DNA from: a bacterium BMS3Bbin05 | Lineage (GTDB): Bacteria; Nitrospirota; Thermodesulfovibrionia; Thermodesulfovibrionales; BMS3Bbin05 | Assembly: GCA_002897855.1 (NCBI GenBank) | Contig: BDTO01000021.1 | Coordinates: forward strand, 10,472 to 74,471 | DNA length: 64,000 nucleotides | Reading direction: 5' to 3' | In this document: one piece after another, positions 24,794-42,562 of the stretch | How positions within the stretch are numbered: the stretch's first letter is position 1 | Layout: every line of letters starts with the position of its first letter | The notes under the pieces: model-generated | Seen by the model: only the letters and a program-made list of their open reading frames with translations | The model's database searches: none | What the model was told of the DNA's origin: nothing | Position numbers and translations under genes: made by a program

Positions 24794-24859
24794 CCGCCCT
24801 TCCGGATATCCCGTTCCGCGAACATAAAATGTCACCGCTCGCCGGCAATGTTATAAACA

Positions 24860-26116: not shown

Positions 26117-27262
26117 TTATGTATGATGCGGGTTAAGAAATTCCTGCACTTCTGCTTTGTTCTCAAGATGGTGCAAGGATATGTTTGGAACATCGGCATT
26201 TCCGGGAAGGGCAAGTACATGGATAAAGGTCAGACCCCTTACAGGCCTTTTAACTGCATCAGTTAACTGCTTTTTACCCGCCACTTTCACTGTATTCTTA
26301 ATTCCGAACCCCCGTGCGACAATTTCAAGGTCAACGCATGAGCCGGTAAATGTCGGTTGACTCCCGGTAGACCCGTATGCACCGTTATCTATGACAATAA
26401 TCGTCAGATTACCGGGAGCTAAGTGCGCCGCTGTCGCAAGTGTACCTGGATTCATGAGCAAACTGCCGTCACCATCTATTACAACCACCTTCCTATCAGA
26501 TGAAAGTGCAACCCCGAGTCCGATTGGAGTGGCCATTCCCATGCTTCCAAGCATGTAGAAACTGGAGGGTTGATGCTTTATGGAAAAAAGTTCCTTTGAA
26601 GGGATTCCTATATTGCAGACAACCAGTTTGCCATCAAGATAAGGTGAAATTATTTCTAATATCTCATAGCGCGTATATTCAGGGGCCAAGATATGACGAC
26701 CGGTATCCGTTCTGATCCGAGAGGCCACCGGATTCCTCTTCTCATCCTCCGGATTCCATTTATTTGCACACTCAACCTCCCACACCCTGGGGCTGAGAAG
26801 GAAGGCATGGATCCTGTTTTTTTCATAGACCATTTCAAGAGGTCTCTTAATCCTGGCAAGGTCTTCCCTTTTGTCGACAACCGTATACCCGACGCCCGAA
26901 GCCTTCAGCAGCCCTTTAACTGCATTACCCATCGGCTTCTGGGCAGCGATCTTTTCCTTATATATACCCCTGTGACTTATAAAAATTGCCAGCGGCAATT
27001 CATAAAATGACGTCAAGGAAAGGAGGGCATTGAGCATATTGCCGATACCGGAATTTTGAATAATCATAGCCGGCCTCTTGCCCGCAAGTGCCGCACCTGC
27101 TGATATACCCACCCCTTCTTCCTCCCGCGTCAGGGGGATATTGACAAATTCAGACGGGATCTTTAAAAGGAGATTCTTGATCCTGTCGCACGGGAGAGAT
27201 AATACATAATCTACTCCAACGCTTTTCATTATGCTTATCAGCTCGTCTTCCGGATTCCGCAT
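26117..27262 (-). CDS. comDE: Fused sulfopyruvate decarboxylase (ComD+ComE-like, TPP-dependent); phosphonopyruvate decarboxylase not excluded
   Basis: 381 aa. The N-terminal half resembles ComD (GVDYVLSLPCDRIKNLL...EEEGVGISAGAALAG). The C-terminal half has the TPP motif (VIDGDGSLLMNPGTLAT...IVIDNGAYGSTG). It overlaps the upstream cysteate-synthase-like gene by 25 nt. No PEP mutase gene is in the window. Confidence 0.7.
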   Translation of the reverse strand: MRNPEDELISIMKSVGVDYVLSLPCDRIKNLLLKIPSEFVNIPLTREEEGVGISAGAALAGKRPAMIIQNSGIGNMLNALLSLTSFYELPLAIFISHRGIYKEKIAAQKPMGNAVKGLLKASGVGYTVVDKREDLARIKRPLEMVYEKNRIHAFLLSPRVWEVECANKWNPEDEKRNPVASRIRTDTGRHILAPEYTRYEILEIISPYLDGKLVVCNIGIPSKELFSIKHQPSSFYMLGSMGMATPIGLGVALSSDRKVVVIDGDGSLLMNPGTLATAAHLAPGNLTIIVIDNGAYGSTGSQPTFTGSCVDLEIVARGFGIKNTVKVAGKKQLTDAVKRPVRGLTFIHVLALPGNADVPNISLHHLENKAEVQEFLNPHHT

Positions 27263-28497
27263 ACAATCTCCTCGATCTCTGAATCGGATATCTCCTTTGA
27301 TATAAAACGGGGCTTTACAATATGAACCCCCTTTTCTTTTCTGAATCTCTCTTCACCACCACCTGTAATATTCAGCAGTACCAATTCATCCCTTTTGACA
27401 TGTTCTTCCTTTATGGCCCGGCTAAGAGCAGCAACAGCGACTCCGGATGCAGGGACGATATCAATACCTTCAGCCTCTGCGAACTCCTCCATCGCCTTAA
27501 ACACCTCATCATTTTCTATGCCGTACATCCGACCATCTGTTGCCCGGAGAGCATCATATACCCCGCCTTTAACCGAATACGCCGGATACCGGTTGGACAA
27601 CACCCGCGTCGTTATCTCAGAAATCAATTCCGGTCTGAGGTCCTGTTTATCGAGTTCCCTGCTCCCCCTCTGCCATGCCTTCGGCATGGGAGCAAAGGGA
27701 AGGTTCTGTGCGAGATGGAGCTGCGGCAGTTTTGCGCCATACCGCCCGTCTCTTAGAAAACGCTCCGACATCTCCCATACGCCGATAGCACCTGTACCGC
27801 TGCCAACGGCCTGGAAATAGTGGTCAGGCAGAGTGCCTATCTCAGAAACCGCCTCAAGCATGACAACTCCCAATCCGTCCCTCTTTGCAATATTTTTTAC
27901 TCCCCCCTCAAACGGCATATTAATAGTTTGTGATATCCTCTTCGCGACATCAATCGAATCAGCATAATCCCCGTCTTCGAGTGCAAATGTAGGCACGACA
28001 AGAGAAGATTCAAGATACCACATCTCAAGGAGACACATCTTGGGAACAACTATAATAACCGGGAAATTTGAAATCACGGACAGGTGCGCAAAGGCCCTTG
28101 CCGTATTACCGGCAGATGCCACTACAAGCCCTTCAACACTGTTTTCCCGGGCATTCTGGAGGACAACGCCGGCTTCAAACTCCTTGAACGTACAACTCTC
28201 GATCGCTGCCCCTTTCTCCGGCCAGTACCCGTTAAAGGCAATATAAAGGTTTTCAAGGCCGAGATCACCGGCAAGTCCCTTCGATCTGTATATGACGGGA
28301 CCGTTCTGGTGAAAGTCGGGCGAATGAACCGGAATCCAGTTAAATCTCCATATACCCTCTCCCCTGTCCTCCCTGAACTCTTCTTCCTTGTAATCCGTAA
28401 CAAGGAGGGCATCCTTACAATGCTCACAAAAGGCACAGTAGACCTCCTGTAAAACCTTGCCGCATTTCCTGCATCTGATATTAAAATGGCTCATCAA
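27238..28497 (-). CDS. Cysteate synthase-like PLP enzyme (threonine-synthase fold)
   Basis: 419 aa with an N-terminal Cys4 zinc ribbon (CRKCG...CAFCEHC), a candidate PLP-lysine context CTFKEFEA, and GSGTGAIG and ITGGG blocks. The call relies on remembered resemblance to the methanogen cysteate synthase family and on coupling to comDE. ATG 28494 is the likely start. Confidence 0.6.
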   Translation of the reverse strand: MMSHFNIRCRKCGKVLQEVYCAFCEHCKDALLVTDYKEEEFREDRGEGIWRFNWIPVHSPDFHQNGPVIYRSKGLAGDLGLENLYIAFNGYWPEKGAAIESCTFKEFEAGVVLQNARENSVEGLVVASAGNTARAFAHLSVISNFPVIIVVPKMCLLEMWYLESSLVVPTFALEDGDYADSIDVAKRISQTINMPFEGGVKNIAKRDGLGVVMLEAVSEIGTLPDHYFQAVGSGTGAIGVWEMSERFLRDGRYGAKLPQLHLAQNLPFAPMPKAWQRGSRELDKQDLRPELISEITTRVLSNRYPAYSVKGGVYDALRATDGRMYGIENDEVFKAMEEFAEAEGIDIVPASGVAVAALSRAIKEEHVKRDELVLLNITGGGEERFRKEKGVHIVKPRFISKEISDSEIEEIVCGIRKTS

Positions 28498-28545
28498 ATA
28501 TTTCCTTTCCCCTCTGCTGTCCAGAACATTTCAGTATTACACCTT

Positions 28546-28722
28546 ACACGCAACGCGGAGTGTCGAAAAAACATAATAACGACTCCTTTAAAACGTGCAG
28601 AACCTGTATTTACCCTCTTCGTATTGCTTTTTACCCATTTTAGGTGTATCTTCCATATTAAGGTCTGCCATTTAATATGTCCGTCGATTTATTATGTTTA
28701 TGAGGCATTCCGCGTTGCATGT
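28546..28722. repeat. Nested long inverted repeat in the HdrD-like / cysteate-synthase intergenic region
   Basis: The arm at 28546-28583 (acacgcaacgcggagtg..aaaaaacataataacgac) pairs with the arm at 28683-28722 (gtcgatttattatgttta..cattccgcgttgcatgt). About 100 nt lie between the arms. Matches are 15/17 and 15/17 with a 2-nt bulge. Confidence 0.7.
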
Positions 28723-28759
28723 ATTGCTATTTCAAACAGATAGGTTCTTTCCCTTGATT

Positions 28760-29971
28760 TCAATCTCCTGATATTAACTCCGCAATTAACTCCATTATAT
28801 CTACAATCCTGATCTGTTTGTCGTATCCCTCCATTGCCTCATTGACCTTTGAATAGCACGCAGGACAGCTAAGCACCAGTCTGTCCGCTCCTTTCCCGAC
28901 GGCCTCGTCAATAGTCAATCTCCCCATAGCAATAGCATTATCGTGAAAGACCTTACGGGCCGCTCCGCCTGCCCCGCAGCATCGTGAGTCGAGTCCGCTC
29001 CTGTCAAATTCAATGAGTTCCACACCCGGTATGCTTTTCAGAACAGACCTTGGCTCCTCTGTCACACCCACTCCCCTGCTCAGGTAACAGGGGTCATGGT
29101 AAATCAGTTTCTCTTTCAATCCTTCTTTAAAATGAAATTTACCATCTTTTATTGCATCTGCAACAAATTGCGTAATATGCCTTATCTTAAAGGGAAGTTC
29201 CTGTCCATAAAACAACGGCCAGTCCCTTGCCATGATATTTACACAGCACGGGCATGAACTTATGAGCAGCTTAACTCCCTTAATCCTGTATGCATCGACC
29301 AACCTTCTTGTTAAATCCTCAAGCCTGTCATGCTGGCCGGTGATGAATAGCGGGAACCCGCAACACACTTCTTCTTCGGGCGGAAGCATTGTGAATGGTT
29401 CACCAATAGCGCCGAGGGCAAGCACATCTCCCCGCACCATAGCCTGTGACTCATATGCACCTGTACAGCCCGCATAGTATCCTATCTCCGCTCTCCCGGC
29501 AACCTTTACTTCTTGCGGGAACCACGGCCTGTATCTTTCTTCAGCAGGTTTATCATATGGATTCCCTGTCCGTTCTATCACCTTTGGCAGGTTTGCCTGG
29601 GGTCCTAACGGCCCCAGCCCCATATCAACCATTTTCTTTCTTAAAAAAGGCCAGAGGCGCTGGCTGAAGATTCCCACTTCACAACTCTCTCCGCATGCAC
29701 CGCATGTTGTGCATTCAAAGACCGCTTTTGCAAACTCTTCAAGCAACTCCCTGTTTACCTTCCGGGGACCAAAAAGTCGAGCCTTAAGCCCCTCGGTATT
29801 ATTAATAAGGTCCCTGTACATCCTGATCTTTTCCGGTGGAGATATACCGCGATTTCCTGTAACCTCCTGGACGGGACACCACTTCAGACACTCGCTGCAC
29901 CTTGTGCAGGCGTCTAACTCTATAAGATGACGTTTGGTTAATCCTTCAACAAAAGATGTTTTTTCAGTCAT
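28760..29971 (-). CDS. HdrD/DsrK/HmeD-like Fe-S protein (two 4Fe-4S motifs and two CCG domains)
   Basis: 403 aa with CTRCSECLKWCP and CTTCGACGESC ferredoxin motifs. It has two CCG-type Cys clusters (EEVCCGFP...SSCPCC and DSRCCGAGG...LSCPAC). Confidence 0.8.
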   Translation of the reverse strand: MTEKTSFVEGLTKRHLIELDACTRCSECLKWCPVQEVTGNRGISPPEKIRMYRDLINNTEGLKARLFGPRKVNRELLEEFAKAVFECTTCGACGESCEVGIFSQRLWPFLRKKMVDMGLGPLGPQANLPKVIERTGNPYDKPAEERYRPWFPQEVKVAGRAEIGYYAGCTGAYESQAMVRGDVLALGAIGEPFTMLPPEEEVCCGFPLFITGQHDRLEDLTRRLVDAYRIKGVKLLISSCPCCVNIMARDWPLFYGQELPFKIRHITQFVADAIKDGKFHFKEGLKEKLIYHDPCYLSRGVGVTEEPRSVLKSIPGVELIEFDRSGLDSRCCGAGGAARKVFHDNAIAMGRLTIDEAVGKGADRLVLSCPACYSKVNEAMEGYDKQIRIVDIMELIAELISGD

Positions 29972-30773
29972 GGACCAACTCCATTAATTTCGATTTCCTC
30001 ATACCGGCCTCCAGAGTAGTAATCTGGGCAGCAAACATATGAAACTGTTTGGAAAACGGGAGAAAAGCGATGAAAAAAAGTGCCGTTGCGGCATGAAACA
30101 CCCAGAAAATTCTGTACAATGACAGGAGAATGCCATCATCCGGGATCCAGGCCTTAATAACTACCGAAAAGGCTGCACCCACAGGTGACCAGTCCATAGA
30201 AGGCGGATTAAATCTTGCCAGACGAATTCCCTCAATGCAGAATCCACTGACGGCTATAATAAGCATAAGAATAAGGACAGCCGCGTCATCCCATGCCGAG
30301 ACTACCGCGCCTCTGGAGAATATGTATCTTCTGAGGATGAAAAACAGAAGTCCTATGATAAAAAAACCGCCTGAAATGTCCAGTACAAGAGAATAATAGA
30401 GGTAAACTCCGCCTTTCAGGATATCCGCACCCATGTCGTAATCAATTGCAACAATTATTGTGCCGATAAAGAGAACAATAAATCCCCAATATACAAACAA
30501 AAGCATCACTGCCCGGAGTTTACTCCGCTCAACAACCCGTTTGGCAAACAGACAATCCCTTGAAAAGATATAGAGTAAACTTATTCTTGCCAGTCCCAAA
30601 GTAGATTTTTTAGGGACAGGATCATTCGGGTCATCTCCGCCCTTAAACCAGGTTGATATTCTGAGCCATGAACCGGTAAAAAAAACAATAATAGATATTG
30701 CAGCGGCGATATAGAAGATAGTCCTTACCAGTGATGGGATATCATTGAAAACTTCTCTTGACTGGTCTATCAT
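29964..30773 (-). CDS. Integral membrane protein, HdrE/DsrM/NarI-like (putative b-type cytochrome partner)
   Basis: 269 aa with about 6 predicted TM segments and conserved His residues in helices. It overlaps the HdrD-like gene by 8 nt. The assignment rests mainly on pairing and topology. Confidence 0.6.
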   Translation of the reverse strand: MIDQSREVFNDIPSLVRTIFYIAAAISIIVFFTGSWLRISTWFKGGDDPNDPVPKKSTLGLARISLLYIFSRDCLFAKRVVERSKLRAVMLLFVYWGFIVLFIGTIIVAIDYDMGADILKGGVYLYYSLVLDISGGFFIIGLLFFILRRYIFSRGAVVSAWDDAAVLILMLIIAVSGFCIEGIRLARFNPPSMDWSPVGAAFSVVIKAWIPDDGILLSLYRIFWVFHAATALFFIAFLPFSKQFHMFAAQITTLEAGMRKSKLMELVHD

Positions 30774-30796
30774 TTTAATCCCTTTAATTATTTGCT

Positions 30797-31744
30797 TCAG
30801 CCCATCATAAGGGGACTTTTCAACAATTCATTTCTTTGAGCAGACCTTAGTGTGTTTTCAAGCAGCATCGATATTGTTACAGGACCGACTCCGCCCGGCA
30901 CGGGTGTTATCAGGGAAGCCTTTTTCTTGACGGATTCGTAATCTACATCTCCGACGATGGTTCCGTCATCCAGCACCTTTATACCTATATCAACGACAAC
31001 AGCGCCTTCCCTGACCATATCACCTCTGATTAAATTTCGCACACCGGTTGCGGAACAGACAATATCCGCATGTCCCAGGAAATGTCCAAGGTCATATGTC
31101 CCGCGATGGCAGACTGTCACCGTCGCCTCTTTTGCAAGCAACATATTTGAAAGAGGTTTTCCTACAGCAAGGCTCTTGCCCACCACAACTGCATGCATGC
31201 CTTTCATCTCTACACCGTAAAATTCCAGGAGCCTGATCACACCAAAAGGGGTACATGGGAGAAAACTTGATATCGAGGGCCTAAATCTGCTTTCATGAAG
31301 CAGTTCATAAGACCCCTCCCTGAATATCTGGAAAGTGGATTCATCAGCGGCAAGACGTCCTACAGAAATAGCACCAAGGCCGTCAACATCCTTCCCGGGT
31401 ATTATCTCATTAACCACCCGTCGCGCATTGATTCTCTCTGGCAGCGGAAAAAGGACAAGCAGGCCGTTTATCCTCTCATCGGTGTTACAGGAATGAATAA
31501 CATTAAGGACCTCATTAACAGAGGTGTTCCCGGACAATTTGAACTCGTAAGACGTAATGCCGACCTTTTTGCATGCCTTGAGTGTAGCAAGGAAATACTG
31601 TTCTGATGCTGGATTATCCCCAACCAGCAACAGTCCGAGCCCAACCTCAATTCCAAAACCTCTGAGTTGCTCTACTTCTTTTCTGACATTATTCTTTATT
31701 TTATCTGAAAGTACCCTTCCATCCATAATCTGCGTCATGGACAT
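30797..31744 (-). CDS. folD: Bifunctional methylene-THF dehydrogenase / methenyl-THF cyclohydrolase
   Basis: 315 aa with GKDVDG, VVVGKSLAVGKPL and TPVPGGVGPVT motifs. It carries a 23-residue insertion between DVDG and CTP relative to E. coli FolD as I remember it. Confidence 0.93.
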   Translation of the reverse strand: MSMTQIMDGRVLSDKIKNNVRKEVEQLRGFGIEVGLGLLLVGDNPASEQYFLATLKACKKVGITSYEFKLSGNTSVNEVLNVIHSCNTDERINGLLVLFPLPERINARRVVNEIIPGKDVDGLGAISVGRLAADESTFQIFREGSYELLHESRFRPSISSFLPCTPFGVIRLLEFYGVEMKGMHAVVVGKSLAVGKPLSNMLLAKEATVTVCHRGTYDLGHFLGHADIVCSATGVRNLIRGDMVREGAVVVDIGIKVLDDGTIVGDVDYESVKKKASLITPVPGGVGPVTISMLLENTLRSAQRNELLKSPLMMG

Positions 31745-31755
31745 TACCTCCGTGT

Positions 31756-32076
31756 TCAGTCATCTTCCTTGATAAATTCCATATGCACATCCTTTGGCAC
31801 TGCAAGTCCCGCCTCTACCTCAAGCACCTTAAGCACACCGGATGGTACGGGGCACGATACGTGCTTCAGACACACCGAAGCCCTGACATAGACCGGGTTA
31901 TCCGTTATTCTCTTGAATGCATCCATGAATTCCAGCTCCGGCATCTCGGCGCCGAGTTTCTGTACCATCTCACATTCTGAAGAAACCGTCACTGCAAACT
32001 TTTTACCGGCCTTCTTTTCTACTTTGACAACCGTGGAAAAACCGCATATGCCTGAATTTATCTTCACTTCAGTCAT
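31756..32076 (-). CDS. Small four-Cys protein of unknown function
   Basis: 106 aa with Cys at positions 11, 35, 69 and 75. It is tightly packed between the RACo-like gene and folD. I do not recognise a family. Confidence 0.5.
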   Translation of the reverse strand: MTEVKINSGICGFSTVVKVEKKAGKKFAVTVSSECEMVQKLGAEMPELEFMDAFKRITDNPVYVRASVCLKHVSCPVPSGVLKVLEVEAGLAVPKDVHMEFIKEDD

Positions 32077-32134
32077 CTTTCAGCCCGGATAATTCATAAA
32101 CCATCACTGCTTCTCCATGCCCCGGTGATTTTAT

Positions 32135-34111: not shown

Positions 34112-34773
34112 TGAGTTTCCTCCATCACTTCAGATTTAATTTCAATATAACCCCTGCCATAAGGACAAATATTGATACACAGCCCGCAATTGGGTTTCCC
34201 GTTAACAGGCCTTGATTTCTCCTTATGGCTCCTGCACTTATCAGCCTTTATCATATCCGGATAAGGTGCGTTCCTCGACCACGTCTCGCCTGTAATAGCC
34301 TTTGAAGGGCAATGGTCAACACAAAGCATGCAATCTCCGCATAGACAGTTCTCGATGGGCAAATCAGTTTTAAAACGGGCATCCGTTAAAACAGTAGCGA
34401 GCGACAGCCGTGGCCCGTAAGTCGGACTGATAAGAAGGCCGTTTCTGCCTATCCAGCCGATACCCGCACATGTCGCAGCTATTTTATGCGTAAAAAGCGG
34501 ATACAACTTTGAAGCAAACGAATCGTTTATCCTGTCCGAATCAGGAGGGATACAGAAAAACCTGTATCCTTTTCCCCTCAGGAATAACGCTGTCTTTTTC
34601 TGCAATTTCTTCAGATGATCCAGATTGCTTTCCCGGAGATTCCCGTTCACGCCTATGGAAATTGCGAAAGACAGGTGTCTTATGTCTTCAGACAGCCCAT
34701 CCGCTACTGAAGCAAATCCGATGACGGTGGCGCCGGCCTTTCTCAACATTTCACGGATACCTTCACGCATCAA
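34108..34773 (-). CDS. Minimal QueG/reductive-dehalogenase-superfamily-like Fe-S protein
   Basis: 221 aa with AGIGWIGRNGLLISPTYGPRLSLATVLTD, a block typical of QueG, then two 4Fe-4S motifs (CGDCMLCVDHCP and CGLCINICP). It is far shorter than canonical QueG (about 380 aa by recollection). It overlaps both neighbouring genes by 4 nt. Confidence 0.6.
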   Translation of the reverse strand: MMREGIREMLRKAGATVIGFASVADGLSEDIRHLSFAISIGVNGNLRESNLDHLKKLQKKTALFLRGKGYRFFCIPPDSDRINDSFASKLYPLFTHKIAATCAGIGWIGRNGLLISPTYGPRLSLATVLTDARFKTDLPIENCLCGDCMLCVDHCPSKAITGETWSRNAPYPDMIKADKCRSHKEKSRPVNGKPNCGLCINICPYGRGYIEIKSEVMEETQ

Positions 34774-35459
34774 TTATTCTTCGCCTCTGCCTCCTCCTTG
34801 AGTTCTTTAAGCGCCCCTATCATCTTGATAGCATCAGAAAGGGCATTGGTTGCATCGGCAGCATACCCGTCTGCCCCCCACTTGTCCGCTATGTCCTTTG
34901 AGACCGGAGCGCCGCCTATCATTATCTTGACATTCGGGTTCTTCGCCTTTAGATTGTCAATAACCTTCTGCATCCCGATCATGGTCGTTGTCATCATCGC
35001 CGACAGACAGACGAGATCGGACTCGGTCTTTATCTGTTCTTCAACAAATTTGTCGAGAGGAACATCACGGCCGAGGTCATAGACATCAAATCCCGCCACA
35101 TCAAACATCATCTTTACGATGTTCTTGCCGATATCATGAACATCTCCTTCAACTGTACCGATCACAACCGACCCCTTGACCCCCAGATCCATCTTCTTTA
35201 CGTGCGGATTGAGGATATCAAGCCCCGCATACAGGGCGTCCGCACACATTAACAGTTCCGGGACAAAATACTCCTGTGACTCGAAAAGCTTTCCTACCTC
35301 CTGCATACCGGCCACAAGCCCGTCAAAGATAGCATCATTTGCATTGAGACCTTCATCCAGCGCCTCCTGGGCGCCTTCCCTGGCAGCATCCTCATCATAC
35401 TCAATCACTGCCTTTGTAAGCTTTTCCATAATCTCCTTTTTTCTTTCTTCTGTTGCCAT
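34770..35459 (-). CDS. Methyltransferase-cognate corrinoid protein (B12-binding)
   Basis: 229 aa with an N-terminal helical cap, the DxHxxG motif (EGDVHDIGKN), the SxL motif (SAMMTTTM) and the GG motif (IGGAPV). Confidence 0.9.
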   Translation of the reverse strand: MATEERKKEIMEKLTKAVIEYDEDAAREGAQEALDEGLNANDAIFDGLVAGMQEVGKLFESQEYFVPELLMCADALYAGLDILNPHVKKMDLGVKGSVVIGTVEGDVHDIGKNIVKMMFDVAGFDVYDLGRDVPLDKFVEEQIKTESDLVCLSAMMTTTMIGMQKVIDNLKAKNPNVKIMIGGAPVSKDIADKWGADGYAADATNALSDAIKMIGALKELKEEAEAKNN

Positions 35460-35462
35460 AAA

Positions 35463-36497
35463 TTACCTCCTGTATTCCTTTACTTCGTCAATCATTGCCC
35501 TGAAATTTTCGGGCGGGACGGTCGGCCAGATATCGCATCCGGGCCAGACAGCGCTCACACCGTCATCAAGGCATTTCCTTACAGTTTCCCTTACCAGCTC
35601 AGTAGTGCCCGAAACAAGCACATTATACGGATCATAATTCCCGAATATCAATGCCTTGTCACCAAGTTTCTTCCTCGTTTCAGCAACATCGTTCTTCTGA
35701 TCGACACTTATCGCATTCGTACCGGACTCAATCATAAAAGCCGCAATATCATTCGTCTTCCCGCAGATATGGACAACACTCGGAACTGTTATCTTTTCAA
35801 ATATTTTCTTCAGGTGAGGAAGTATGAGGTTCTTGAAACCCCTCGGGCTGAGTACATCCGATGTCGCCCCCATCTCCCTTATCGTCAGATAATCAACACC
35901 CGCTTTCTCGTATTCAGCGGCAATTGCAATAATTACTCCTGCAAGAGTATCCAGAAGCTTACCGACCTTGTCAGGCTTCTTGAAAGAAAGCTTCAGAAGA
36001 TCGTTCAACTCCATTATCTGGCCTGCAAGAGTAAAGGGGCCGAGTAAATATGACCCCACCGGCACTTCGTCACCGATCTCTTTCTTCGCAAGCCCTATAG
36101 CCTCCATCATCATGGGGATCCTTCCCCTTTCAAGCAAATCATCAGGTACGGCGATCTCCATCCCAGCCTCATTATGGATCACTTTTTCCTTGATCGTAGG
36201 GTACAGCAGGTCCCCGGAATAAGCATAAGTATTTATCCGGCATCCAAGCGCCTCCGCCTCCACACAGAGGTCGAACGGCAAGACGCAGCTGTCAAACCCG
36301 AACAGTTTCGGAGTAGTAACCGCCGTCTCCGCCATCTGCCTTGCATCAAGATGTACCTGCGCGAACTTGTAGCCGAGCTGATTGAGTCCTTCGGTCGTTG
36401 CATTACCCATTCCGCTGAAACAGGCCGGCCTGTCCGTTTCTTCTCCTCTGAAAAGTTTAAGAACTCTTTCTCTTGAGCTCATTGTCGATACAGCCAT
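35463..36497 (-). CDS. URO-D family methylcobamide methyltransferase (MtaA/MtbA/MtvA-like), copy 1
   Basis: 344 aa with the uroporphyrinogen-decarboxylase-like fold typical of MT2 enzymes (VHICGKT...WPGCDI). AAGGAG precedes the ATG. Confidence 0.8.
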   Translation of the reverse strand: MAVSTMSSRERVLKLFRGEETDRPACFSGMGNATTEGLNQLGYKFAQVHLDARQMAETAVTTPKLFGFDSCVLPFDLCVEAEALGCRINTYAYSGDLLYPTIKEKVIHNEAGMEIAVPDDLLERGRIPMMMEAIGLAKKEIGDEVPVGSYLLGPFTLAGQIMELNDLLKLSFKKPDKVGKLLDTLAGVIIAIAAEYEKAGVDYLTIREMGATSDVLSPRGFKNLILPHLKKIFEKITVPSVVHICGKTNDIAAFMIESGTNAISVDQKNDVAETRKKLGDKALIFGNYDPYNVLVSGTTELVRETVRKCLDDGVSAVWPGCDIWPTVPPENFRAMIDEVKEYRR

Positions 36498-36523
36498 CCC
36501 TTAATCTCCTTTCATGAATATTA

Positions 36524-37489
36524 TTATTTTGCAACCTTTTTCTTTCTCGCTCCGCCCTCGATAACCTTTTCAATAAAGTCAGGAAAATACTTTCTTATGG
36601 GAAGAAAATCTTTGTCCGCTATTTCATGTGTTTCGTCATATACGAGCGTCGAGAGGAGTATATGCGCAGTTGCAACGGCCGGAAAAATCCTCGGTGCAGT
36701 TACAATGGGGCCATAAAAATTAAAATCGCTCCACAGCACGGAAGACATGCCCTGTGCCACTGCGTCCATCGCCCTGAAGCCGTCAAGGCCCCACAGGACC
36801 TTCGACTCCTTCCACATATGAGTTCCATTGGAATATGCGCCACCGCACGGCAGGCCGAGTTTTTCCTTTATCAGCCTGTTGGCCAGCAGCGAAAAAGAAG
36901 TAGACGGAAGGTTCATCACCGATGTGTCTACAATGACGGTATCAAAACTGCCGGCCCCCTGAGAGAGCATTGCCTCGAGAGACTTCAATCTGCCGGCAGG
37001 TGTCTGATCCCGGTCATCAAAGGCCTGAACTACCACGTGCCTTATACCCAGGTCCTTAAGTCTTTCCACCTGCCCCTTTATATCTCTGTCCCAGGGAGTT
37101 ATGCTGTTATACAGGAACTTGTCCTGCACCCCCAGTTTCGCCACATATTCCGTAGCCTTCGCCCTCTTTTCGGCAACCCACATATCGATTCCGAAAGGCA
37201 TATCGGTCGTTTCAAGATAAAAATCTATGTAGACCCGAGCCTCCTCCGGGGTATTGGCAACCATTGCAACCATAGCCGGGATACCTGTTGAACGGCTTAA
37301 TTCTTCCTGTTTCCTGATCAGCTCCACTGCCCTGTTCCGGTCAAATTTCGCCGTCTTCCTGTCTTTTAGAATTTTATCCTTGTTATGAAACATGGATGCA
37401 ATCATCATGGGCACATTTTCACCCGGTTGTCCGCCGATTTCTATTCCGGCAATGTCAAAAATTTTCTGCTCCGTTTTAAATCTGAACAT
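36524..37489 (-). CDS. MtrH-like methyl-pterin:corrinoid methyltransferase
   Basis: FRFKTEQKIFDIAGIEIGGQPGENVPMMIASMFH resembles the MtrH family. The ORF track starts at TTG 37504. ATG 37489 follows AAGGAG. Confidence 0.75.
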   Translation of the reverse strand: MFRFKTEQKIFDIAGIEIGGQPGENVPMMIASMFHNKDKILKDRKTAKFDRNRAVELIRKQEELSRSTGIPAMVAMVANTPEEARVYIDFYLETTDMPFGIDMWVAEKRAKATEYVAKLGVQDKFLYNSITPWDRDIKGQVERLKDLGIRHVVVQAFDDRDQTPAGRLKSLEAMLSQGAGSFDTVIVDTSVMNLPSTSFSLLANRLIKEKLGLPCGGAYSNGTHMWKESKVLWGLDGFRAMDAVAQGMSSVLWSDFNFYGPIVTAPRIFPAVATAHILLSTLVYDETHEIADKDFLPIRKYFPDFIEKVIEGGARKKKVAK

Positions 37490-37679
37490 TCGTTCTCCTT
37501 TCAATGTTGAAATATAATTGCATGAAGATACTTAAATAAACATTGCAAATATAATTTCTGAAATAAAAATAAAGGAGTATTGGAGCAACCAGGGGATGAA
37601 GCAGCAAAATTTCACCGCTCCAATACTCCGGGAACCGGCTATTCAAAGGCCTTATGTATCGAGCAAGTTACCACAATTA

Positions 37680-38120
37680 TCAATATACACCGTGGTCGAA
37701 GCTCGGCTGAGGAAGATATTCCCATTCCTCCCCTTTTCTGAATTTGGCCTCGATGTCGAGACACTTCAGGGCATATTCAAACGCATAGGGTATTCCCGGC
37801 CCGCCCGGGACAAAGCCTGCGAGTATCATACCTACCGACGCAGCCTCAAATATCTCACCGGTTGTTGCACCGGCATTAATGGCAGGGATTACATGGATAA
37901 TGCACCTTGGAGAACAGTATGCAACCCCGCCGGACATGAACATCAGTTCCTTGATCTTCTTGGAGAGTGCCCCGTCACCAAAAATTGATGCATAAAAATC
38001 TGCAAAGGTTCTTCCGGGATCAGGTGTAACTGTGTTAATAATCTTGAACATCCTGGGAGTAAAGCCCATTTTTTCCTTCATGTACTCATTACACTGTTCG
38101 GCTGTCATTTTCTCTGACAT
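37680..38120 (-). CDS. Carboxymuconolactone decarboxylase / AhpD-like family protein
   Basis: The AhpD-core-like segment is LMFMSGGVAYCSPRCIIHVIPA (Cys-x3-Cys-x2-His). The ORF track starts at 38189. ATG 38120 (MSEKMTAEQ) follows a strong AGGAAGGAGG site. Confidence 0.75.
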   Translation of the reverse strand: MSEKMTAEQCNEYMKEKMGFTPRMFKIINTVTPDPGRTFADFYASIFGDGALSKKIKELMFMSGGVAYCSPRCIIHVIPAINAGATTGEIFEAASVGMILAGFVPGGPGIPYAFEYALKCLDIEAKFRKGEEWEYLPQPSFDHGVY

Positions 38121-38304
38121 AAGCTCCTCCTTCCTGCTATTTTCCGGCCCCATGGCCAGAATTTTCTTAATACTGCCAAATATCCCCATAAATACCTTCC
38201 CCTGTGGAAACTAACATCTTAAGCCATCTCACCTCCTCCCGTTTACAGACACACATGGTCTTGATCCGGGACTCTTTTGTATTCATCTGTTTCATGAACC
38301 CGGG

Positions 38305-39333
38305 TTAGAGCTTCCATTCATTTGCTACCTGAATAAACTTTTGTATGTTTTCATATGGGACAGTCGGCGGGATATCACATCCCGGCATAAGTACAAAGGC
38401 GCCGTCCGTCCCTGCAGCCTCTATAACTTTCCTGCATGCACTCTCCACATCACCAACACCGCCCTGGAGCATGACCGCAACCGGATCTACATTCCCTGCA
38501 AAACACATCTTTCCATATAAAAGCTCTCTTGCCTTCACTATGTCCGTTTTGTGGTCAAGACTGATACAGCTTGCACCGGTATCTGGAAAGAGCCCCAGCC
38601 TGTCTGTAGTATTGCCGCATATATGCAGAAGGGTGTGAACGTTCTTTGCCCGGGCCCAGCCGGTAAATTTCCTGAGTGGCGGTACTGCAAATCTCTCAAA
38701 CTGCTTCTTTGATATGAGGTCACCCGATGCCGTTGGGTCCGCAAGGGAGATCACCTGGAGTGTCCCGTCATCCACGAGGGGTTCATAGAGATGGATGAGA
38801 AGGTCACATGCAAAATCCACAACCTTCTCCACAAGGGCGGGTTTCTTGAAAGTTGCTTTCATCATCACTTCTTCACCGACAAAACGCGCCCCGAGAGTAA
38901 AAGGCCCCCATGCAGTCATGCTCACCACATATTTACCGCCTATCTTCTCTTTCGTCTTTCTTAATGCCTCTTTAACGGTATTGATTGTCTCATCTTTATC
39001 TATATCTTCTATTCTGAGTTTCGCAAGGTCTTCCTCTGAATCCACCAGTGGAGCTTCAAGATCGGGCGCCCCGATCTCACGGAATTTTATCTTTCCTCCC
39101 AATGCAGATGCATGGAAATTATTGTACCCCGACCCGGCATAAACTATATCGCATTGAAGTTTCTCACTGTTTTCGACAAGCATCTGCGTCATCTTGTCCG
39201 CATCTCCCGACAGCTCTTTGAATGTGGTACCGGAGTTATGGATGCTCCACATACCACCGCCAAACAGTGTTACCGGCACCCTTTCAGGCTTTCCCCCTTC
39301 AAAGGCTGTTAACATGACTTCTTTTGGTGTCAT
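38305..39333 (-). CDS. URO-D family methylcobamide methyltransferase (MtaA/CmuA-like), copy 2
   Basis: 342 aa, a paralog of 35463-36497 (LLHICGNTT...MPGCDIPP). AAAGGAGGAATGT precedes the ATG. Confidence 0.8.
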   Translation of the reverse strand: MTPKEVMLTAFEGGKPERVPVTLFGGGMWSIHNSGTTFKELSGDADKMTQMLVENSEKLQCDIVYAGSGYNNFHASALGGKIKFREIGAPDLEAPLVDSEEDLAKLRIEDIDKDETINTVKEALRKTKEKIGGKYVVSMTAWGPFTLGARFVGEEVMMKATFKKPALVEKVVDFACDLLIHLYEPLVDDGTLQVISLADPTASGDLISKKQFERFAVPPLRKFTGWARAKNVHTLLHICGNTTDRLGLFPDTGASCISLDHKTDIVKARELLYGKMCFAGNVDPVAVMLQGGVGDVESACRKVIEAAGTDGAFVLMPGCDIPPTVPYENIQKFIQVANEWKL

Positions 39334-39709
39334 ACATTCCTCCTTTCTTCTCAGTCATGAATTTATCATTTATAATCTGCTTCAGCAACTTAATGAAATA
39401 ATCAAGTTCGACAGGAGTTTCGATGATGAACATATCGTCAATTAATTCGTTTTCCATTATATCGGTATCAACCAACAGAACCAGCGTCGTTTCCGGCCTT
39501 ATATGTTTAATAATCGAAGCGGCTTCATATGCATTCAATCCAACGTCACGCGAATCGAGTATTACAACACCATAACTCTTATGGAGCGAGTATCTCACAG
39601 ATTCAGAGGCGTGTTCCACAATATCAACCTCGAATCCCTCATCCCGAAGGGGGCTATAAAGCCCCTTGATAAAAATCTGGTCCTGCGTGCTTAGCAGAAG
39701 ATTTCTCAT
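39299..39709 (-). CDS. Stand-alone CheY-like receiver domain protein (atypical acidic pocket)
   Basis: 136 aa with a beta-alpha pattern and a candidate phospho-acceptor in VVILDSRD. The N-terminal pocket reads STQDQ rather than DD. The 3' end overlaps the next gene by 35 nt. Confidence 0.55.
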   Translation of the reverse strand: MRNLLLSTQDQIFIKGLYSPLRDEGFEVDIVEHASESVRYSLHKSYGVVILDSRDVGLNAYEAASIIKHIRPETTLVLLVDTDIMENELIDDMFIIETPVELDYFIKLLKQIINDKFMTEKKGGMYDTKRSHVNSL

Positions 39710-39884
39710 GGCAGATAATTAAAAGCAACTTTGATGCCAGTGCAAAATACCTTAATATCCAGGGGTATGATAAGGACATGCATCGATGGGATGGGGAAAC
39801 TTTCCCCGCATGGTGTGGAATTATTCCCCAGCCTTACAAGACAACTACTAAACTGCAGAGACTCAGAGAACATCATTATTATTA

Positions 39885-41518: not shown

Positions 41519-41527
41519 ATCGTAATT

Positions 41528-41547
41528 ATAATACAATATTGTATTAT
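41528..41547. promoter_or_regulatory. Perfect 20-bp palindrome upstream of the AbiEii/AbiEi operon (candidate operator)
   Basis: ATAATACAATATTGTATTAT is its own reverse complement. It lies 10 nt upstream of the proposed AbiEii ATG. Confidence 0.45.
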
Positions 41548-42296: not shown

Positions 42297-42311
42297 AATA
42301 GGTAACATGTT

Positions 42312-42560: not shown

Positions 42561-42562
42561 GC

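Follow-up and report, generated by a model that had tools for sequence, protein, structure and literature searches.

A putative corrinoid C1-transfer operon with sulfonate and HdrD-like genes in an uncultured Nitrospirota bacterium

Introduction

The window analysed here, a 64,000-nucleotide stretch of contig BDTO01000021.1, belongs to the metagenome-assembled genome (MAG) of an uncultured, sulfur-cycling Nitrospirota bacterium with close relatives in the Thermodesulfovibrionia. A first-pass annotation read a block of minus-strand genes in it as a coenzyme M (CoM)-linked methyl-transfer module. The bacterial setting that it described is confirmed by rpoB, rpoC and the genes for EF-Tu and EF-G, and no open reading frame (ORF) in the window has the size or family of McrA. 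What might such genes do together in a bacterium of this kind?

Operon structure, conservation and regulation

The ORF list places 14 co-directional minus-strand genes between positions 26117 and 39709, the 5' half running from a receiver-like protein (39299-39709) to an Fe-S protein (34108-34773) and the 3' half from an activator gene (32135-34111) to a fused ComDE (26117-27262). The earlier count of fifteen is thus one too high, its own list naming 14 items, but the three larger intergenic gaps were given exactly: 115 nt (38190-38304), 175 nt (37505-37679) and 262 nt (28498-28759). All of its family calls were reproduced by Pfam and NCBIfam profile searches.

Across about 40 related species-level genomes, judged where the contig is long enough, the core order URO-D2, corrinoid protein, Fe-S protein, RACo, DUF6951, membrane subunit, CCG protein, cysteate synthase (CysS) and ComDE is kept; the per-gene counts below refer to informative loci, from 43 loci in total. 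About 30 or more independent genomes show the same arrangement, which is therefore not due to chance, and the expected co-localisation in relatives is borne out by a strongly kept core gene set.

A sigma-54-type promoter element with one mismatch (TGGCAT-N5-TTGCT, 39724-39739, minus strand) precedes the first ORF by 14 nt. The same element directly precedes the first gene in loci L004/L005, L009, L038 and L040, and the window contains sigma-54 activator genes at 45051-46559 and 51673-53007. The operon is accordingly placed under predicted sigma-54 control. Its first gene encodes a small stand-alone receiver-like protein of 136 amino acids, with a weak Response_reg match (17 bits, below cut-off) and orthologues in 7 loci, of which that in L086 has an unmarked Response_reg match (E <= 1e-5) in the precomputed Pfam list. 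At the other end, a convergent plus-strand gene (25545-26084) adjoins ComDE and has homologues there in 17 of 43 loci. Its 179-amino-acid product gave no match in Pfam or NCBIfam; the conserved C-terminus, DWLILRALKFYVKEY, may by eye be a ribbon-helix-helix, and the protein is possibly a regulator whose membership of the operon is uncertain.

The first-pass annotation had listed FolD in the cluster and MetF beyond its upstream end. FolD (methylene-THF dehydrogenase/cyclohydrolase, 30797-31744) is identified by profile search and is found in only 6 of the 43 related loci, which makes it an optional insert outside the core, and the proximity of MetF (43154-44026, 3.4 kb upstream of the cluster) is specific to this window. 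The folate oxidation block therefore falls outside the conserved unit.

Methyltransferases and corrinoid activation

Two URO-D family proteins are encoded, both with the His-Cys-Cys zinc site of MtaA. URO-D2 (35463-36497; 26 of 28 relatives) is a corrinoid methyltransferase of the MtaA/CmuA family, passing the cut-offs of TIGR01463 (251.5 against 235.4) and PRK06252 (270 against 244), and it aligns with MtaA 4AY7 (E 1.9e-47) with the zinc triad kept. URO-D1 (38305-39333; Pfam URO-D 200 bits) forms a distinct clade and falls short of the TIGR01463 cut-off (178 against 235 bits), its HICG and PGC motifs aligning with those of 4AY7. Among 24 informative Nitrospirota relatives, 17 have it and 7 lack it, and orthologues of 49-53% identity occur in the non-Nitrospirota loci L088 and L089. 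The MtaA-type identity first assigned to this pair does not survive closer comparison. Both proteins miss the equivalog cut-offs, URO-D2 those of MtaA (253 against 400) and MtbA; the pocket signature of URO-D2 is MGVLY where MtaA has TQRLQ, and neither protein has the Gln29/Arg70 pair of the bona fide archaeal MtaA of M. mazei and Methanodesulfokora. The closest relatives of both lie in bacterial mec/mlp-like clusters, not among archaeal MtaA, so that orthology with MtaA is ruled out. The branching check is mixed. The zinc site itself is of the thiol/halide type (His-Cys-Cys) and not of the O-demethylase type.

An MtrH-family methyl-corrinoid:pterin (THF) methyltransferase (36524-37504; NF002142 335 bits, cut-off 287; Pfam MtrH 185 bits) occurs in 23 of 27 relatives, and an MtaC/MtbC-type corrinoid protein with B12-binding_2 and B12-binding domains (34770-35459; TIGR02370 214.8, just under the 215.3 cut-off) in 28 of 30. 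The RACo-type ATP-dependent reductive activator (32135-34111; 29 of 31) has the Fer2, RACo_linker, Raco_middle and RACo_C_ter domains and scores 490 bits against the AcsV model, under its cut-off of 800. The Fe-S protein (34108-34773; 27 of 30) is a truncated member of the QueG/RdhA family whose matches to QueG 5D6S (2.4e-16) and PceA (1.7e-12) span residues 96-210 and include both [4Fe-4S] motifs, its G-W-I-G-K-N-G-L aligning to G-F-I-G-K-N-G-L of QueG.

The small DUF6951 protein (31756-32076; PF22263, 111 bits; 32 of 37 relatives) has invariant Cys11, Cys35, His72 and Cys75. A fold search of the PDB with its AF2 model (pLDDT 88.8) returned IscU, SufE, SufU, CsdE or NifU-like structures at all of ranks 1-35 (E 0.05-0.8, TM 0.40-0.55), and in Firmicutes, Chloroflexota and Deltaproteobacteria (now Desulfobacterota) the family is found together with the methyltransferase module. 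The AhpD/CMD-like thiol-redox protein (37680-38189; Pfam CMD, 24.7 bits) conserves an E-x10-C-x3-C-x2-H motif with the invariant part YCSPRCIIH; an in-frame TGA extension of its gene was looked for and none was found. Of 24 relatives, 20 have the protein, and the orthologues in L088 and L089 share 65-70% identity with it.

Sulfonate genes

The PLP enzyme at 27238-28497 is a cysteate synthase (O-phosphoserine + sulfite to L-cysteate), as first called: it scores 463 bits with TIGR03844 (cut-off 324.9) and at most 84 with threonine synthase models, so a threonine synthase was rejected. It is 41-47% identical to the enzymes of methanogens and Bacteroidia. The call of a fused ComDE (26117-27262), a sulfopyruvate decarboxylase that forms sulfoacetaldehyde, is also upheld, as it passes TIGR03845 (188, cut-off 148) and TIGR03846 (222.1, cut-off 221.5), and a phosphonopyruvate decarboxylase was rejected at a score of 210 under the 312.5 cut-off. 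ComDE is present in 37 of 38 relatives and is 39-44% identical to methanogen ComDE encoded next to CysS. The two genes overlap by 25 nt in the window. ComF/MMP16 is absent from the window and from 46 related loci. CoM can form from sulfide and sulfoacetaldehyde without ComF, and L-ASST can replace it (PMC12068725).

In other phyla, L088 and L089 carry orthologues of the CMD protein, both URO-D proteins, MtrH, the corrinoid protein, RACo and DUF6951, L088 additionally those of the NarI-like and CCG proteins, and both have an SsuABC-like ABC importer of sulfonate type where CysS-ComDE would be. L001 holds both an importer (SsuA_fam 191.6, cut-off 163.5) and CysS-ComDE, and in an ANME-1 (Methanophagales) locus an SsuA-type binding protein is paired with CysS-ComDE. 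This pattern of importing or making a sulfonate links the sulfonate to the methyltransferases. L087, L090, L092 and L093 have neither URO-D1/CMD orthologues nor sulfonate genes. Four other lineages have the core methyltransferase module but no sulfonate genes, and the sulfonate is therefore not essential to the core reaction. Conversely, CysS-ComDE stands alone beside housekeeping genes in L029 and L035 and lacks the methyltransferase module in L017. Further accessories for thiols or sulfur relay recur among the related clusters: L089 encodes DsrE, and L090 thioredoxin and a disulfide reductase.

HdrD-like protein and membrane subunit

The protein at 28760-29971, first labelled HdrD-like, has the full HdrD architecture, with two ferredoxin-type [4Fe-4S] motifs (CxxCxxCxxxC) and two complete CCG motifs, and all of its 19 cysteines are kept across about 30 orthologues (18 of them at 100%, one at 97%). 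It occurs in 35 of 39 relatives, and L088 has a 47%-identical orthologue. In relatives its gene and CysS abut or overlap. Its best NCBIfam match is TfrB (173 bits, under the 385 cut-off), and its PDB matches include HdrB. Some CCG proteins, for example GlpC, LutA and TfrB, are plain electron-transfer subunits, so its disulfide role is putative.

The overlapping gene at 29964-30773 encodes an integral membrane subunit of the NarI/DsrM/HdrE kind (Nitrate_red_gam 27 bits; weak QmoC match), a 269-amino-acid variant homologous to the 227-amino-acid form of most relatives (hhalign 96.5%); one form or the other is found in 36 of 39. The family match agrees with the HdrE-like label, but two of the four haem histidines, those of helix II, are missing.

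Proposed function

We tentatively propose, at a little under an even chance, that the operon is a THF-linked corrinoid C1-transfer system with a mercapto-sulfonate, probably CoM, as co-substrate and an HdrD-like thiol/disulfide module. Three units would be joined under sigma-54 control. In the C1 transferase, centred on the corrinoid protein, URO-D2 would load Co(I) with a C1 group whose source is a small molecule carrying a soft leaving group, namely a methyl sulfide or methanethiol, or possibly a halomethane, and MtrH would hand it on to tetrahydrofolate. Oxidised cobalt would be re-reduced by RACo, aided by the IscU-like DUF6951 and the QueG/RdhA-like protein. In the sulfonate unit, cysteate synthase, a housekeeping aminotransferase and ComDE would convert phosphoserine and sulfite to sulfoacetaldehyde, from which thiolation in a sulfidic cell may give CoM (2-mercaptoethanesulfonate) or a closely similar thiol. 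URO-D1 and the AhpD-like protein may then use this thiol as methyl acceptor, donor or nucleophile with the same corrinoid protein, and the HdrD-like and NarI-like pair could couple its thiol/disulfide couple to the quinone pool. That the thiol is CoM and that it carries methyl groups we infer, as we do the substrate, the direction of transfer and the roles of URO-D1 and the CCG pair; we know of no enzyme that consumes methyl-CoM in a bacterium without Mcr.

The original idea is thus partly retained. CysS and ComDE, the conserved co-localisation, the zinc-site type, the HdrD architecture and the import-or-make pattern speak for it. Against it speak the lack of MtaA orthology, the poorly conserved folate block, the absence of ComF/MMP16, the missing haem histidines, the gaps in URO-D1 occurrence and the loci in which the methyltransferase module or CysS-ComDE occurs without the other. 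Of the four proposed checks that were run, on URO-D branching, the PLP enzyme, ComDE and co-localisation, none spoke wholly against it.

Comparison with known systems

The arrangement is not described in the searchable literature. Its C1 transferase would be of the bacterial mec/mlp kind, and CysS and ComDE are the archaeal-type first enzymes of CoM synthesis; their combination may point to a novel role for a CoM-like thiol in bacteria.

Gene order and conservation of the cluster

We counted 14 co-directional minus-strand ORFs between 26117 and 39709, where the first-pass annotation spoke of fifteen genes but itself listed 14. Its three larger gaps of 115, 175 and 262 nt were recovered exactly, and most of the remaining junctions are overlaps or spacers of at most about 60 nt. 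The genes for cysteate synthase (CysS, 27238-28497) and the fused sulfopyruvate decarboxylase (ComDE, 26117-27262) overlap by 25 nt, and those for the NarI-like membrane subunit and the HdrD-like iron-sulfur (CCG) protein (28760-29971) by 8 nt. Pfam and NCBIfam scans reproduced all of the earlier family calls for the 14 genes. The first gene of the operon, on the minus strand, encodes a weak receiver domain, and MtrH passes its model cut-off (NF002142, 335 bits against 287). In order of transcription, the receiver gene is followed by those for URO-D#1, the CMD/AhpD-like protein, MtrH, URO-D#2, the MtaC-type corrinoid protein, the QueG/RdhA-like Fe-S protein, a RACo with four domains, DUF6951, FolD, the NarI-like membrane subunit, the CCG protein, CysS and ComDE. 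The context reported earlier was also found: MetF lies 3.4 kb upstream of the cluster (43154-44026) past an AbiEi/AbiEii pair, rpoB and rpoC are present together with EF-Tu and EF-G, and no ORF of McrA size or family occurs in the window. The AbiEi antitoxin and AbiEii nucleotidyltransferase toxin genes (40062-41767, minus strand) lie between the operon and MetF, as do DUF6941 and HicB-like genes (41895-42928), and the region 40062-42928 looks like a small mobile or defence islet parting MetF from the cluster.

Close matches were found to proteins of a "Nitrospirae bacterium" MAG (CysS and the second URO-D family methyltransferase, URO-D#2, 100% identity; DUF6951, 99%). A homologue scan using one genome per species confirmed 586 homologues, the best 80 of which were used. 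About 44 of these 80 come from Nitrospirota MAGs at 60-73% identity (Thermodesulfovibrionia, Thermodesulfovibrionales, Dissulfurispiraceae and Thermodesulfovibrio sp.), while the other 36 or so, at 41-47% identity, belong to methanogens and ANME, Bacteroidia and a few further lineages. The Nitrospirota homologues among the best 80 are all from MAGs, with no cultured strain represented.

Conservation of the co-localisation, which the first-pass annotation had put forward as a check, proved strong across Nitrospirota. Counted over non-redundant Nitrospirota loci with sufficient flanking sequence, ComDE is present in 37 of 38 informative loci, the CCG protein in 35 of 39, the membrane subunit in 36 of 39, DUF6951 in 32 of 37, the corrinoid protein activator RACo in 29 of 31, the Fe-S protein in 27 of 30, the corrinoid protein in 28 of 30 and URO-D#2 in 26 of 28. 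MtrH (23/27), the AhpD-like protein (20/24) and the first URO-D protein, URO-D#1 (17/24), follow. The folate enzymes, earlier taken as members of the cluster, did not hold up as part of the unit: FolD occurs in 6 of 43 Nitrospirota loci and MetF in no related locus, which places the folate-oxidation genes outside the conserved unit.

Three loci depart from this clustering. In L029 and L035, CysS-ComDE form an isolated pair next to housekeeping genes, and L017 has no methyltransferase genes. The membrane subunit, CCG, CysS and ComDE genes of L017 (672-6251) are preceded by a ketoacyl synthase, an AMP-binding enzyme, a radical SAM/SPASM protein and a B12-radical SAM protein, a neighbourhood that may reflect a different use of the sulfonate. 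The 262-nt gap between the CCG and CysS genes (28498-28759) is found only in the window, the relatives having these genes in direct contact or overlapping, and the gap sequence has no match in any related locus.

The two URO-D family methyltransferases

URO-D#1 (38305-39333) and URO-D#2 (35463-36497) both keep the HxC...C zinc motifs of the Methanosarcina mazei MtaA structure (4AY7), with HICG and PGC aligned, and the His-Cys-Cys triad is also seen in the family-wide alignment. MtaA 4AY7 is the best solved-structure match of URO-D#2. Zinc ligands of the His-x-Cys...Cys kind belong to S- and Se-type methyltransferases and not to O-demethylases (Kountz & Balskus, PMC10418091), and an O-demethylase reading of the URO-D proteins is rejected by this zinc site. 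The same MtaA/CmuA family includes chloromethane- and DCM-type enzymes (mec literature). URO-D#2 passes the MtaA/CmuA family cut-offs (TIGR01463, 251.5 against 235.4; PRK06252, methylcobalamin:CoM methyltransferase, 270.2 against 244) and URO-D#1 falls below them (178.5 and 160.4, respectively). The MtaA and MtbA equivalogs NF040654 and NF041608 are missed widely by URO-D#2 (253 against 400; 186 against 600) and also by URO-D#1 (145 against 400; 144 against 600).

A neighbour-joining tree was built from 137 sequences, comprising the two window proteins, MtaA, five paralogues of related loci and 129 representatives, these being the ones of at least 300 residues among 150 listed representatives of a 1.8-billion-protein library. 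MtaA positions 28, 29, 70, 75 and 94 have been named as active-site residues (2026 engineering paper, PMC13618148). They read TQRLQ in both M. mazei MtaA and a Methanodesulfokora MtaA representative, xQRxQ in large neighbouring clades, MGV(L/M)Y in the URO-D#2 clade and (L/I/V)FYNA in the URO-D#1 clade. Gln29 and Arg70, kept in the two archaeal proteins, are replaced by Gly and Val in URO-D#2 and by Phe and Tyr in URO-D#1; Arg70 may be the residue with which MtaA binds the sulfonate. The URO-D#2 clade has a conserved Arg of its own at pocket position 201, and the same Arg is found in relatives without a sulfonate link. On residue patterns, we lean against an MtaA-like binding mode, which would still allow the use of coenzyme M (CoM). 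The first-pass view of these proteins as MtaA-type methyltransferases stands in part. They do not branch with THF-specific bacterial demethylases in the sense meant there, but they are not archaeal MtaA, lacking Gln29 and Arg70, missing the equivalogs and having bacterial clusters as their nearest relatives.

Sulfonate biosynthesis genes

The earlier calls for the two sulfonate genes were borne out against their nearest confusable families. CysS scores 463 bits with the cysteate synthase model (TIGR03844, cut-off 324.9), and the best threonine synthase model gives 84 against a cut-off of 303. ComDE passes the models for the alpha (TIGR03845, 188.2 against 147.95) and, marginally, the beta subunit (TIGR03846, 222.1 against 221.5), and stays below that for phosphonopyruvate decarboxylase (210.4 against 312.5). 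ComDE directly follows CysS in the window, as in Methanosphaerula, Methanospirillum, Methanomassiliicoccales and ANME-1 loci, and the identity of the two window proteins to archaeal enzymes is only 39-47%. A class I/II aminotransferase gene (55883-56992, minus strand) is a possible candidate for the step from cysteate to sulfopyruvate.

No ComF (MMP16) was found in the window or in 46 Nitrospirota loci by tblastn with three MMP16 proteins; seven archaeal-type loci were positive and carry MMP16 beside CysS. The window likewise holds no methyl-CoM-consuming gene. CoM can form abiotically from sulfide and sulfoacetaldehyde under reducing conditions, and the homocysteine enzyme L-ASST can make up for the loss of MMP16 (PMC12068725), so a sulfidogenic cell might do without ComF. 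Locus L075, recorded as Faecalibacterium sp. CAG:74, encodes MMP16, CysS and ComDE at 39-55% identity to archaeal genes and is probably a mis-binned Methanomassiliicoccales contig. Bacteroidia have the same cysteate synthase family with no ComDE nearby; their enzyme serves sulfonolipid synthesis. Anaerobic methanesulfonate demethylation was considered as a function of the cluster and found no support, and the direction of the CysS reaction argues against it.

Relatives outside Nitrospirota and a probable link between sulfonate and methyl transfer

Only about 20 URO-D#2 representatives (50%-identity clusters) score above the archaeal MtaA-type level (about 180 bits; M. mazei MtaA, 165 bits), and the neighbourhoods of seven were examined. 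The closest, L087 from a Desulfotomaculum sp. (URO-D#2 at 55-56% identity), has a URO-D protein, corrinoid protein, RACo, MtrH, a second URO-D protein and DUF6951, and then a 131-aa PNPOx-family protein. L088 (53%) and L089 from Anaerolineae (55%, with an additional DsrE) have the full set. The L090 cluster from Deltaproteobacteria (40%) combines a URO-D protein, corrinoid protein, RACo, DUF6951 and MtrH with thioredoxin, a disulfide reductase and CobW, and L092 from Dehalococcoidales (39%; neighbouring paralogue 48%) has four URO-D proteins, two DUF6951 proteins, a corrinoid protein, RACo and MtrH. Desulfobacterales are represented by L093 (44%), where a URO-D protein and a corrinoid protein lie beside Wood-Ljungdahl genes, and the seventh, L091 (38%), is an MTTB/MTHFR-type methylotrophy cluster with no DUF6951. 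From this spread over lineages, we infer that the core of URO-D#2-type enzyme, MtrH, corrinoid protein, RACo and DUF6951 is an old and widely distributed bacterial unit. MtrH and URO-D#2 occur as a natural 662-aa fusion in L088 (9900-11888), which argues that both methyltransferases act on the same corrinoid protein.

Among the six DUF6951/URO-D#2-type clusters outside Nitrospirota, orthologues of URO-D#1 (49% identity in L088, 53% in L089) and of the AhpD-like protein (65% and 70%) are confined to L088 and L089. These two are also the only ones with an SsuA/TauC-type ABC importer (SsuABC-like), which sits inside the cluster at the position of CysS-ComDE in Nitrospirota. L087, L090, L092 and L093, the four that lack URO-D#1 and the AhpD-like protein, hold no sulfonate genes, and the same three absences apply to the methylotrophy cluster L091. 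Both solutions are combined in the Nitrospirota locus L001, which has CysS-ComDE and an in-cluster binding protein that scores 191.6 with the SsuA family model (cut-off 163.5). Of 43 Nitrospirota loci, 13 have an SsuA-like binding protein in the vicinity of the cluster, among them the window (48138-49049), and an ANME-1 locus has an SsuA-family gene immediately upstream of CysS-ComDE. To import a compound or else to make it is the behaviour of a cofactor and not of a catabolic substrate. This pattern, taken with the tight gene overlaps, favours a functional link between the sulfonate and methyltransferase genes over coincidence, and the pattern is the central new observation of this analysis.

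The simplest alternative is a plain demethylase or dehalogenase that feeds C1 groups from methanethiol, dimethylsulfide or a halomethane to THF, with the sulfonate genes serving an unrelated product (a taurine or isethionate solute, a sulfonolipid or a general low-molecular-weight thiol) and lying adjacent through shared inheritance or regulation. The core module does occur without sulfonate genes in Desulfotomaculum, Deltaproteobacteria/Desulfobacterales and Dehalococcoidales, and the sulfonate genes occur without the module in L029 and L035 and beside lipid-type genes (KAS, AMP-binding, radical SAM) in L017; the ComDE-free cysteate synthases of Bacteroidia and the lack of a nearby ComF fit it as well. 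It does not account for the adjacency of the two gene sets, with translational overlaps, in about 30 species, for the importer that stands in for CysS-ComDE in orthologous clusters of two other phyla, for the co-variation of URO-D#1 and the AhpD-like protein (CMD) with the sulfonate genes, or for the CCG/NarI pair that bridges both sets. We regard this alternative as unlikely.

A second alternative takes the sulfonate itself as the fuel: an S-methylated sulfonate, imported or cycled internally, would be demethylated by URO-D#1 to the mercapto-sulfonate, and the CCG/NarI pair would oxidise the thiol and pass electrons to quinone. The SsuABC-like importers inside the L001, L088 and L089 clusters agree with this idea, as does the L088 operon, which runs on into Rieske, cytochrome b, cytochrome c, NarI and CCG genes. 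Against it, a cell would not be making the very compound that it degrades, and about 40 species carry CysS-ComDE; moreover, we know of no abundant natural S-methyl sulfonate besides methyl-CoM. Catabolism of this kind is very improbable.

The Hdr-like pair

The CCG protein contains two CxxCxxCxxxC and two complete CX(n)CCX(n)CXXC motifs, which is the layout of HdrD (HdrC plus HdrB). Its 19 cysteines are all conserved across about 30 orthologues, 18 of them fully and one at 97%. No curated equivalog is reached; the best is TfrB (173 bits against a cut-off of 385), a subunit of the thiol:fumarate reductase that uses CoM and CoB, followed by LdhH, GlpC and DsrK (DsrK, 73). Its membrane partner exists in two homologous forms (hhalign probability 96.5%). 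Four ligand histidines are the criterion for a di-haem cytochrome b of the NarI family or HdrE type, and the 227-aa form found in most relatives (for example L002 7838-8521 and L004 8078-8758) has four histidines as in that family. The 269-aa form of the window (29964-30773, minus strand), L001, L017 and L037 is missing both helix-II histidines and is left with two of the four haem histidines. The haem content of the two forms may differ.

Orthologues of the NarI-like protein (34% identity) and of the CCG protein (47%) are present in L088, which has no CysS-ComDE. The Hdr-like pair is thereby connected with thiol use and not with thiol synthesis. The idea that the CCG protein might be the missing CoM-forming enzyme was down-weighted, since L088 has both orthologues with an importer and without CysS-ComDE.

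The first-pass annotation drew a strict analogy with methanogens, in which URO-D#1 and URO-D#2 are true methylcobamide:CoM methyltransferases, methyl-CoM is central and the CCG/NarI pair is a heterodisulfide reductase. The family scores of URO-D#2 and its match to 4AY7 speak for this, as do the HdrD architecture of the CCG protein, with a CoM/CoB enzyme as its top NCBIfam match, and the methanogen-like synteny of CysS and ComDE. The sequence departures of the two URO-D proteins from archaeal MtaA weigh against it, and neither mcr nor genes of a pathway to the second thiol, CoB, were seen in the window. We know of no source of heterodisulfide other than Mcr. The heterodisulfide of methanogens is the product of the Mcr reaction (PMC12068725), which is missing here. 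We consider the strict analogy quite improbable.

Accessory proteins and regulation

The AF2 model of DUF6951 (pLDDT 88.8) was searched against PDB folds. Ranks 1-35 were all IscU, SufE, SufU, CsdE or NifU-like, at weak levels (E 0.05-0.8, TM 0.40-0.55). Cys11, Cys35, His72 and Cys75 are invariant, and we take them to resemble the ligands Cys37, Cys63, His105 and Cys106 of Escherichia coli IscU. DUF6951 is probably a small protein that binds an Fe-S cluster or carries sulfur, and its place in the methyltransferase module suggests that it may serve RACo. No mention of DUF6951 (PF22263) was found in the literature searched. The 221-aa Fe-S protein belongs, in truncated form, to the B12-dependent QueG/RdhA family (profile search: QueG, 2.4e-16; PceA, 1.7e-12), and the matched region takes in both cluster motifs and a conserved G-x-I-G-K-N-G-L stretch. 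In the AhpD-like protein, a variant of the AhpD redox motif, E-x10-C-x3-C-x2-H, is invariant. Selenocysteine recoding of its gene was considered as an explanation of the 115- and 175-nt gaps and rejected, as in-frame translation met ordinary stops and gave no extension.

A sigma-54 promoter (TGGCAT-N5-TTGCT, 39739-39724, minus strand) lies 14 nt ahead of the first ORF and is found at the same place in L004, L009, L038 and L040. The window encodes two sigma-54 activators, one with a GAF domain (45051-46559) and the other at 51673-53007. Further sigma-54 matches with one mismatch were seen on the plus strand upstream of an OsmC-like gene (47087-47102; gene at 47174) and upstream of the genes at 22927 and 23163 (GGDEF) (22896-22911). 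No riboswitch or known RNA was found in the gaps, the Rfam gathering scan of the 64 kb returning one tRNA only; blastn of all five gaps against every locus revealed no conserved intergenic element, and scans for sigma-70 promoters and terminators were no different from shuffled sequence.

Convergent to ComDE, a plus-strand gene (25545-26084) encodes a conserved 179-aa protein with a Pro-rich N-terminus and no family match, which has a homologue in 17 of 43 loci. Its conserved C-terminus looks, from the sequence, like a ribbon-helix-helix. A 1415-aa fusion of two BcrAD/BadFG-type activase ATPase domains with DUF2229 (16692-20939, plus strand) is syntenic in L004 and L005 and scores 198 with methanogenesis marker 15, below the cut-off of 456. 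Genes for the corrinoid adenosyltransferase CobA, for TonB-dependent receptors or TonB and for CobW-type metallochaperones recur beside the clusters (window 24281-24835, minus strand; L001 17412-21257; L086 5335-6210; L090; L092), consistent with B12 salvage and with zinc delivery to the URO-D enzymes. Downstream of the L001 cluster, a 130-aa fragment of GrdB (glycine/sarcosine/betaine reductase B; 13925-14317) may be part of a selenoprotein gene split at a UGA codon.

Proposed pathway

We propose, at somewhat less than even confidence for the scheme as a whole, that the operon carries out THF-linked corrinoid C1 transfer with a mercapto-sulfonate co-substrate and an HdrD-like module. URO-D#2 would load the corrinoid protein with a C1 group taken from a small molecule that has a zinc-binding leaving group (methanethiol, methyl sulfide or a halomethane), MtrH would pass it from the corrinoid protein to THF, and RACo, DUF6951 and the mini-QueG protein would keep the cobalt reduced. 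A core transfer system of this kind, substrate aside, is very probable. CysS and ComDE would supply sulfoacetaldehyde, a role that we think likely. The sulfoacetaldehyde would then be thiolated to CoM or a near analogue, and this identity for the thiol falls a little short of an even prospect. We more tentatively suggest that URO-D#1 and the AhpD-like protein use the thiol at the same corrinoid protein. The HdrD/NarI-like pair would link the thiol/disulfide couple to quinone, a step for which the case seems evenly poised. A split methionine synthase, in which a Zn thiol methylase for homocysteine would work with MtrH, the corrinoid protein and RACo, was set aside, as it leaves the sulfonate genes and the two URO-D clades unexplained.

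Extended beyond the window, the scheme would make CoM or a near analogue the cofactor of a corrinoid/THF C1 pathway in Thermodesulfovibrionia and in relatives from at least two further phyla, which would produce it by the archaeal cysteate synthase route without ComF or import it, and would connect it to the quinone pool through the HdrD/NarI-like complex; in this full form the proposal is doubtful. If true, it would give CoM a third biological role, after archaeal methane/alkane and bacterial alkene/epoxide metabolism, and bacteria a second route to it. CoM is known as a cofactor of archaeal methane/alkane and bacterial alkene metabolism, and the biosynthetic routes counted in 2025 were three, only one of them bacterial (Xanthobacter xcb) (PMC12068725).

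This cluster was not described anywhere in the full-text literature searched, which included the mec, mlp and CoM-biosynthesis papers and was not exhaustive in coverage. For MAG NIT_04, "MtaA" was recorded in a 2022 MAG study that did not mention the sulfonate genes; NIT_04 is apparently the MAG of locus L027 (isolate B_NIT_04). A corrinoid methyltransferase cluster of mec/mlp type is already known, and the archaeal-type sulfonate biosynthesis and the HdrD-like module appear to be new. The archaeal-type first steps of CoM synthesis are now placed in widespread uncultured sulfur-cycling bacteria, where they are linked to an Hdr-like membrane module and to corrinoid methyltransferases. Should the product prove to be CoM, this cofactor would have a wider distribution and more roles than now known, CoM, methyl-CoM and comDE/cysteate synthase genes in metagenomes would no longer be markers of methanogens, and there would be a concrete handle on the unresolved mec/mlp-type chemistry by which halomethanes and methyl-sulfur compounds are turned over in anoxic groundwater and sediments. 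If it is not, the cluster would still represent a conserved and unstudied link between organosulfonate synthesis and C1 metabolism.

Comparison with known systems

Likeness to mec and mlp was judged by kinds of parts from published descriptions. The mec cassette of anaerobic dichloromethane catabolism (Dehalobacterium, Ca. Dichloromethanomonas, Ca. Formimonas and Dehalobacter; bioRxiv 10.1101/2021.08.30.458270; PMC9768040) shares with the operon several URO-D-superfamily methyltransferases (three in mec, one of them of the MtaA/CmuA family), MtrH, an MtaC-type corrinoid protein, RACo/RACE and a small DUF protein. L087, the nearest non-Nitrospirota relative of URO-D#2, lies in a cluster of mec-like parts and could, as a lead, correspond to the "mecEFG" cluster that Murdoch et al. 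report from Opalinus Clay. Unlike mec, the operon and its flanks have no PocR histidine kinase/response regulator (MecA/D) and no cation antiporter MecJ, and the gene order is different. Beyond mec, it has the AhpD-like protein, the mini QueG/RdhA protein, the HdrD/NarI-like pair, CysS-ComDE and a Nitrospirota host.

These parallels raise the possibility of mec-like catabolism of dihalomethanes or halomethanes, in which a halomethyl group is loaded on the corrinoid protein and a methylene group passed to THF. Glutathione acts as a nucleophile in the aerobic DcmA reaction, and the mercapto-sulfonate would likewise be a nucleophile or trap for a chloromethyl or formaldehyde intermediate, kept reduced by the CCG and AhpD-like proteins. 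The presence of FolD, never MetF, inside some clusters would follow because THF would receive the methylene group. The matching composition, the QueG/RdhA-family protein in the operon and the hydrophobic pocket signature of URO-D#2 also agree. In Dehalobacterium grown on DCM, a PNPOx-family protein of 131 aa ranks second in abundance among all proteins (mec literature), and the one beside the L087 cluster has the same length. The likeness to MecE, MecC and MecG is one of kinds of parts, and FolD is found in just 6 of the 43 clusters. The absence of PocR kinase and MecJ, the different gene order, hosts from pristine groundwater, hot springs and sediments, and a mec literature that reports no thiol requirement also count against this reading, which we judge improbable, if less so than the strict methanogen analogy.

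Type 1 mlp clusters combine two or more Mlps with a corrinoid protein and Ram/RACE, and the operon has parts of the same kinds; the proposed substrates of Type 1 are methyl-sulfur or methyl-selenium compounds, and sulfur-metabolism neighbours are frequent (PMC10418091). A THF methyltransferase is absent from Type 1, whereas the operon has an MtrH-family gene, and the mlp paper is silent on sulfonate biosynthesis and on any Hdr-like pair. Type 2 (Methanosarcina-type) CoM biosynthesis consists of cysteate synthase, an aminotransferase, ComDE and ComF/MMP16 (PMC12068725). The operon has overlapping neighbour genes for cysteate synthase and fused ComDE, as do the Methanosphaerula, Methanospirillum, Methanomassiliicoccales and ANME-1 loci, but MMP16 beside CysS is seen in the seven archaeal-type loci and in no bacterial one.

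HdrDE of Methanosarcina and DsrMK of sulfate reducers are, like the pair described here, two-gene units of a NarI-fold membrane protein and a CCG iron-sulfur subunit (cytoplasmic here), from which the operon differs in that its CCG protein reaches no equivalog and the window membrane subunit has two of the four haem histidines. With MtaABC and the Mtr complex of methanogens, the operon shares the logic of a corrinoid carrier that stands between two subunits, one of MtrH type that binds a pterin and one with zinc that methylates a thiol. The operon's own proteins are soluble, bacterial and THF-using, with no MtaB or MtrA-G homologues and with the Gln29 and Arg70 of MtaA replaced.
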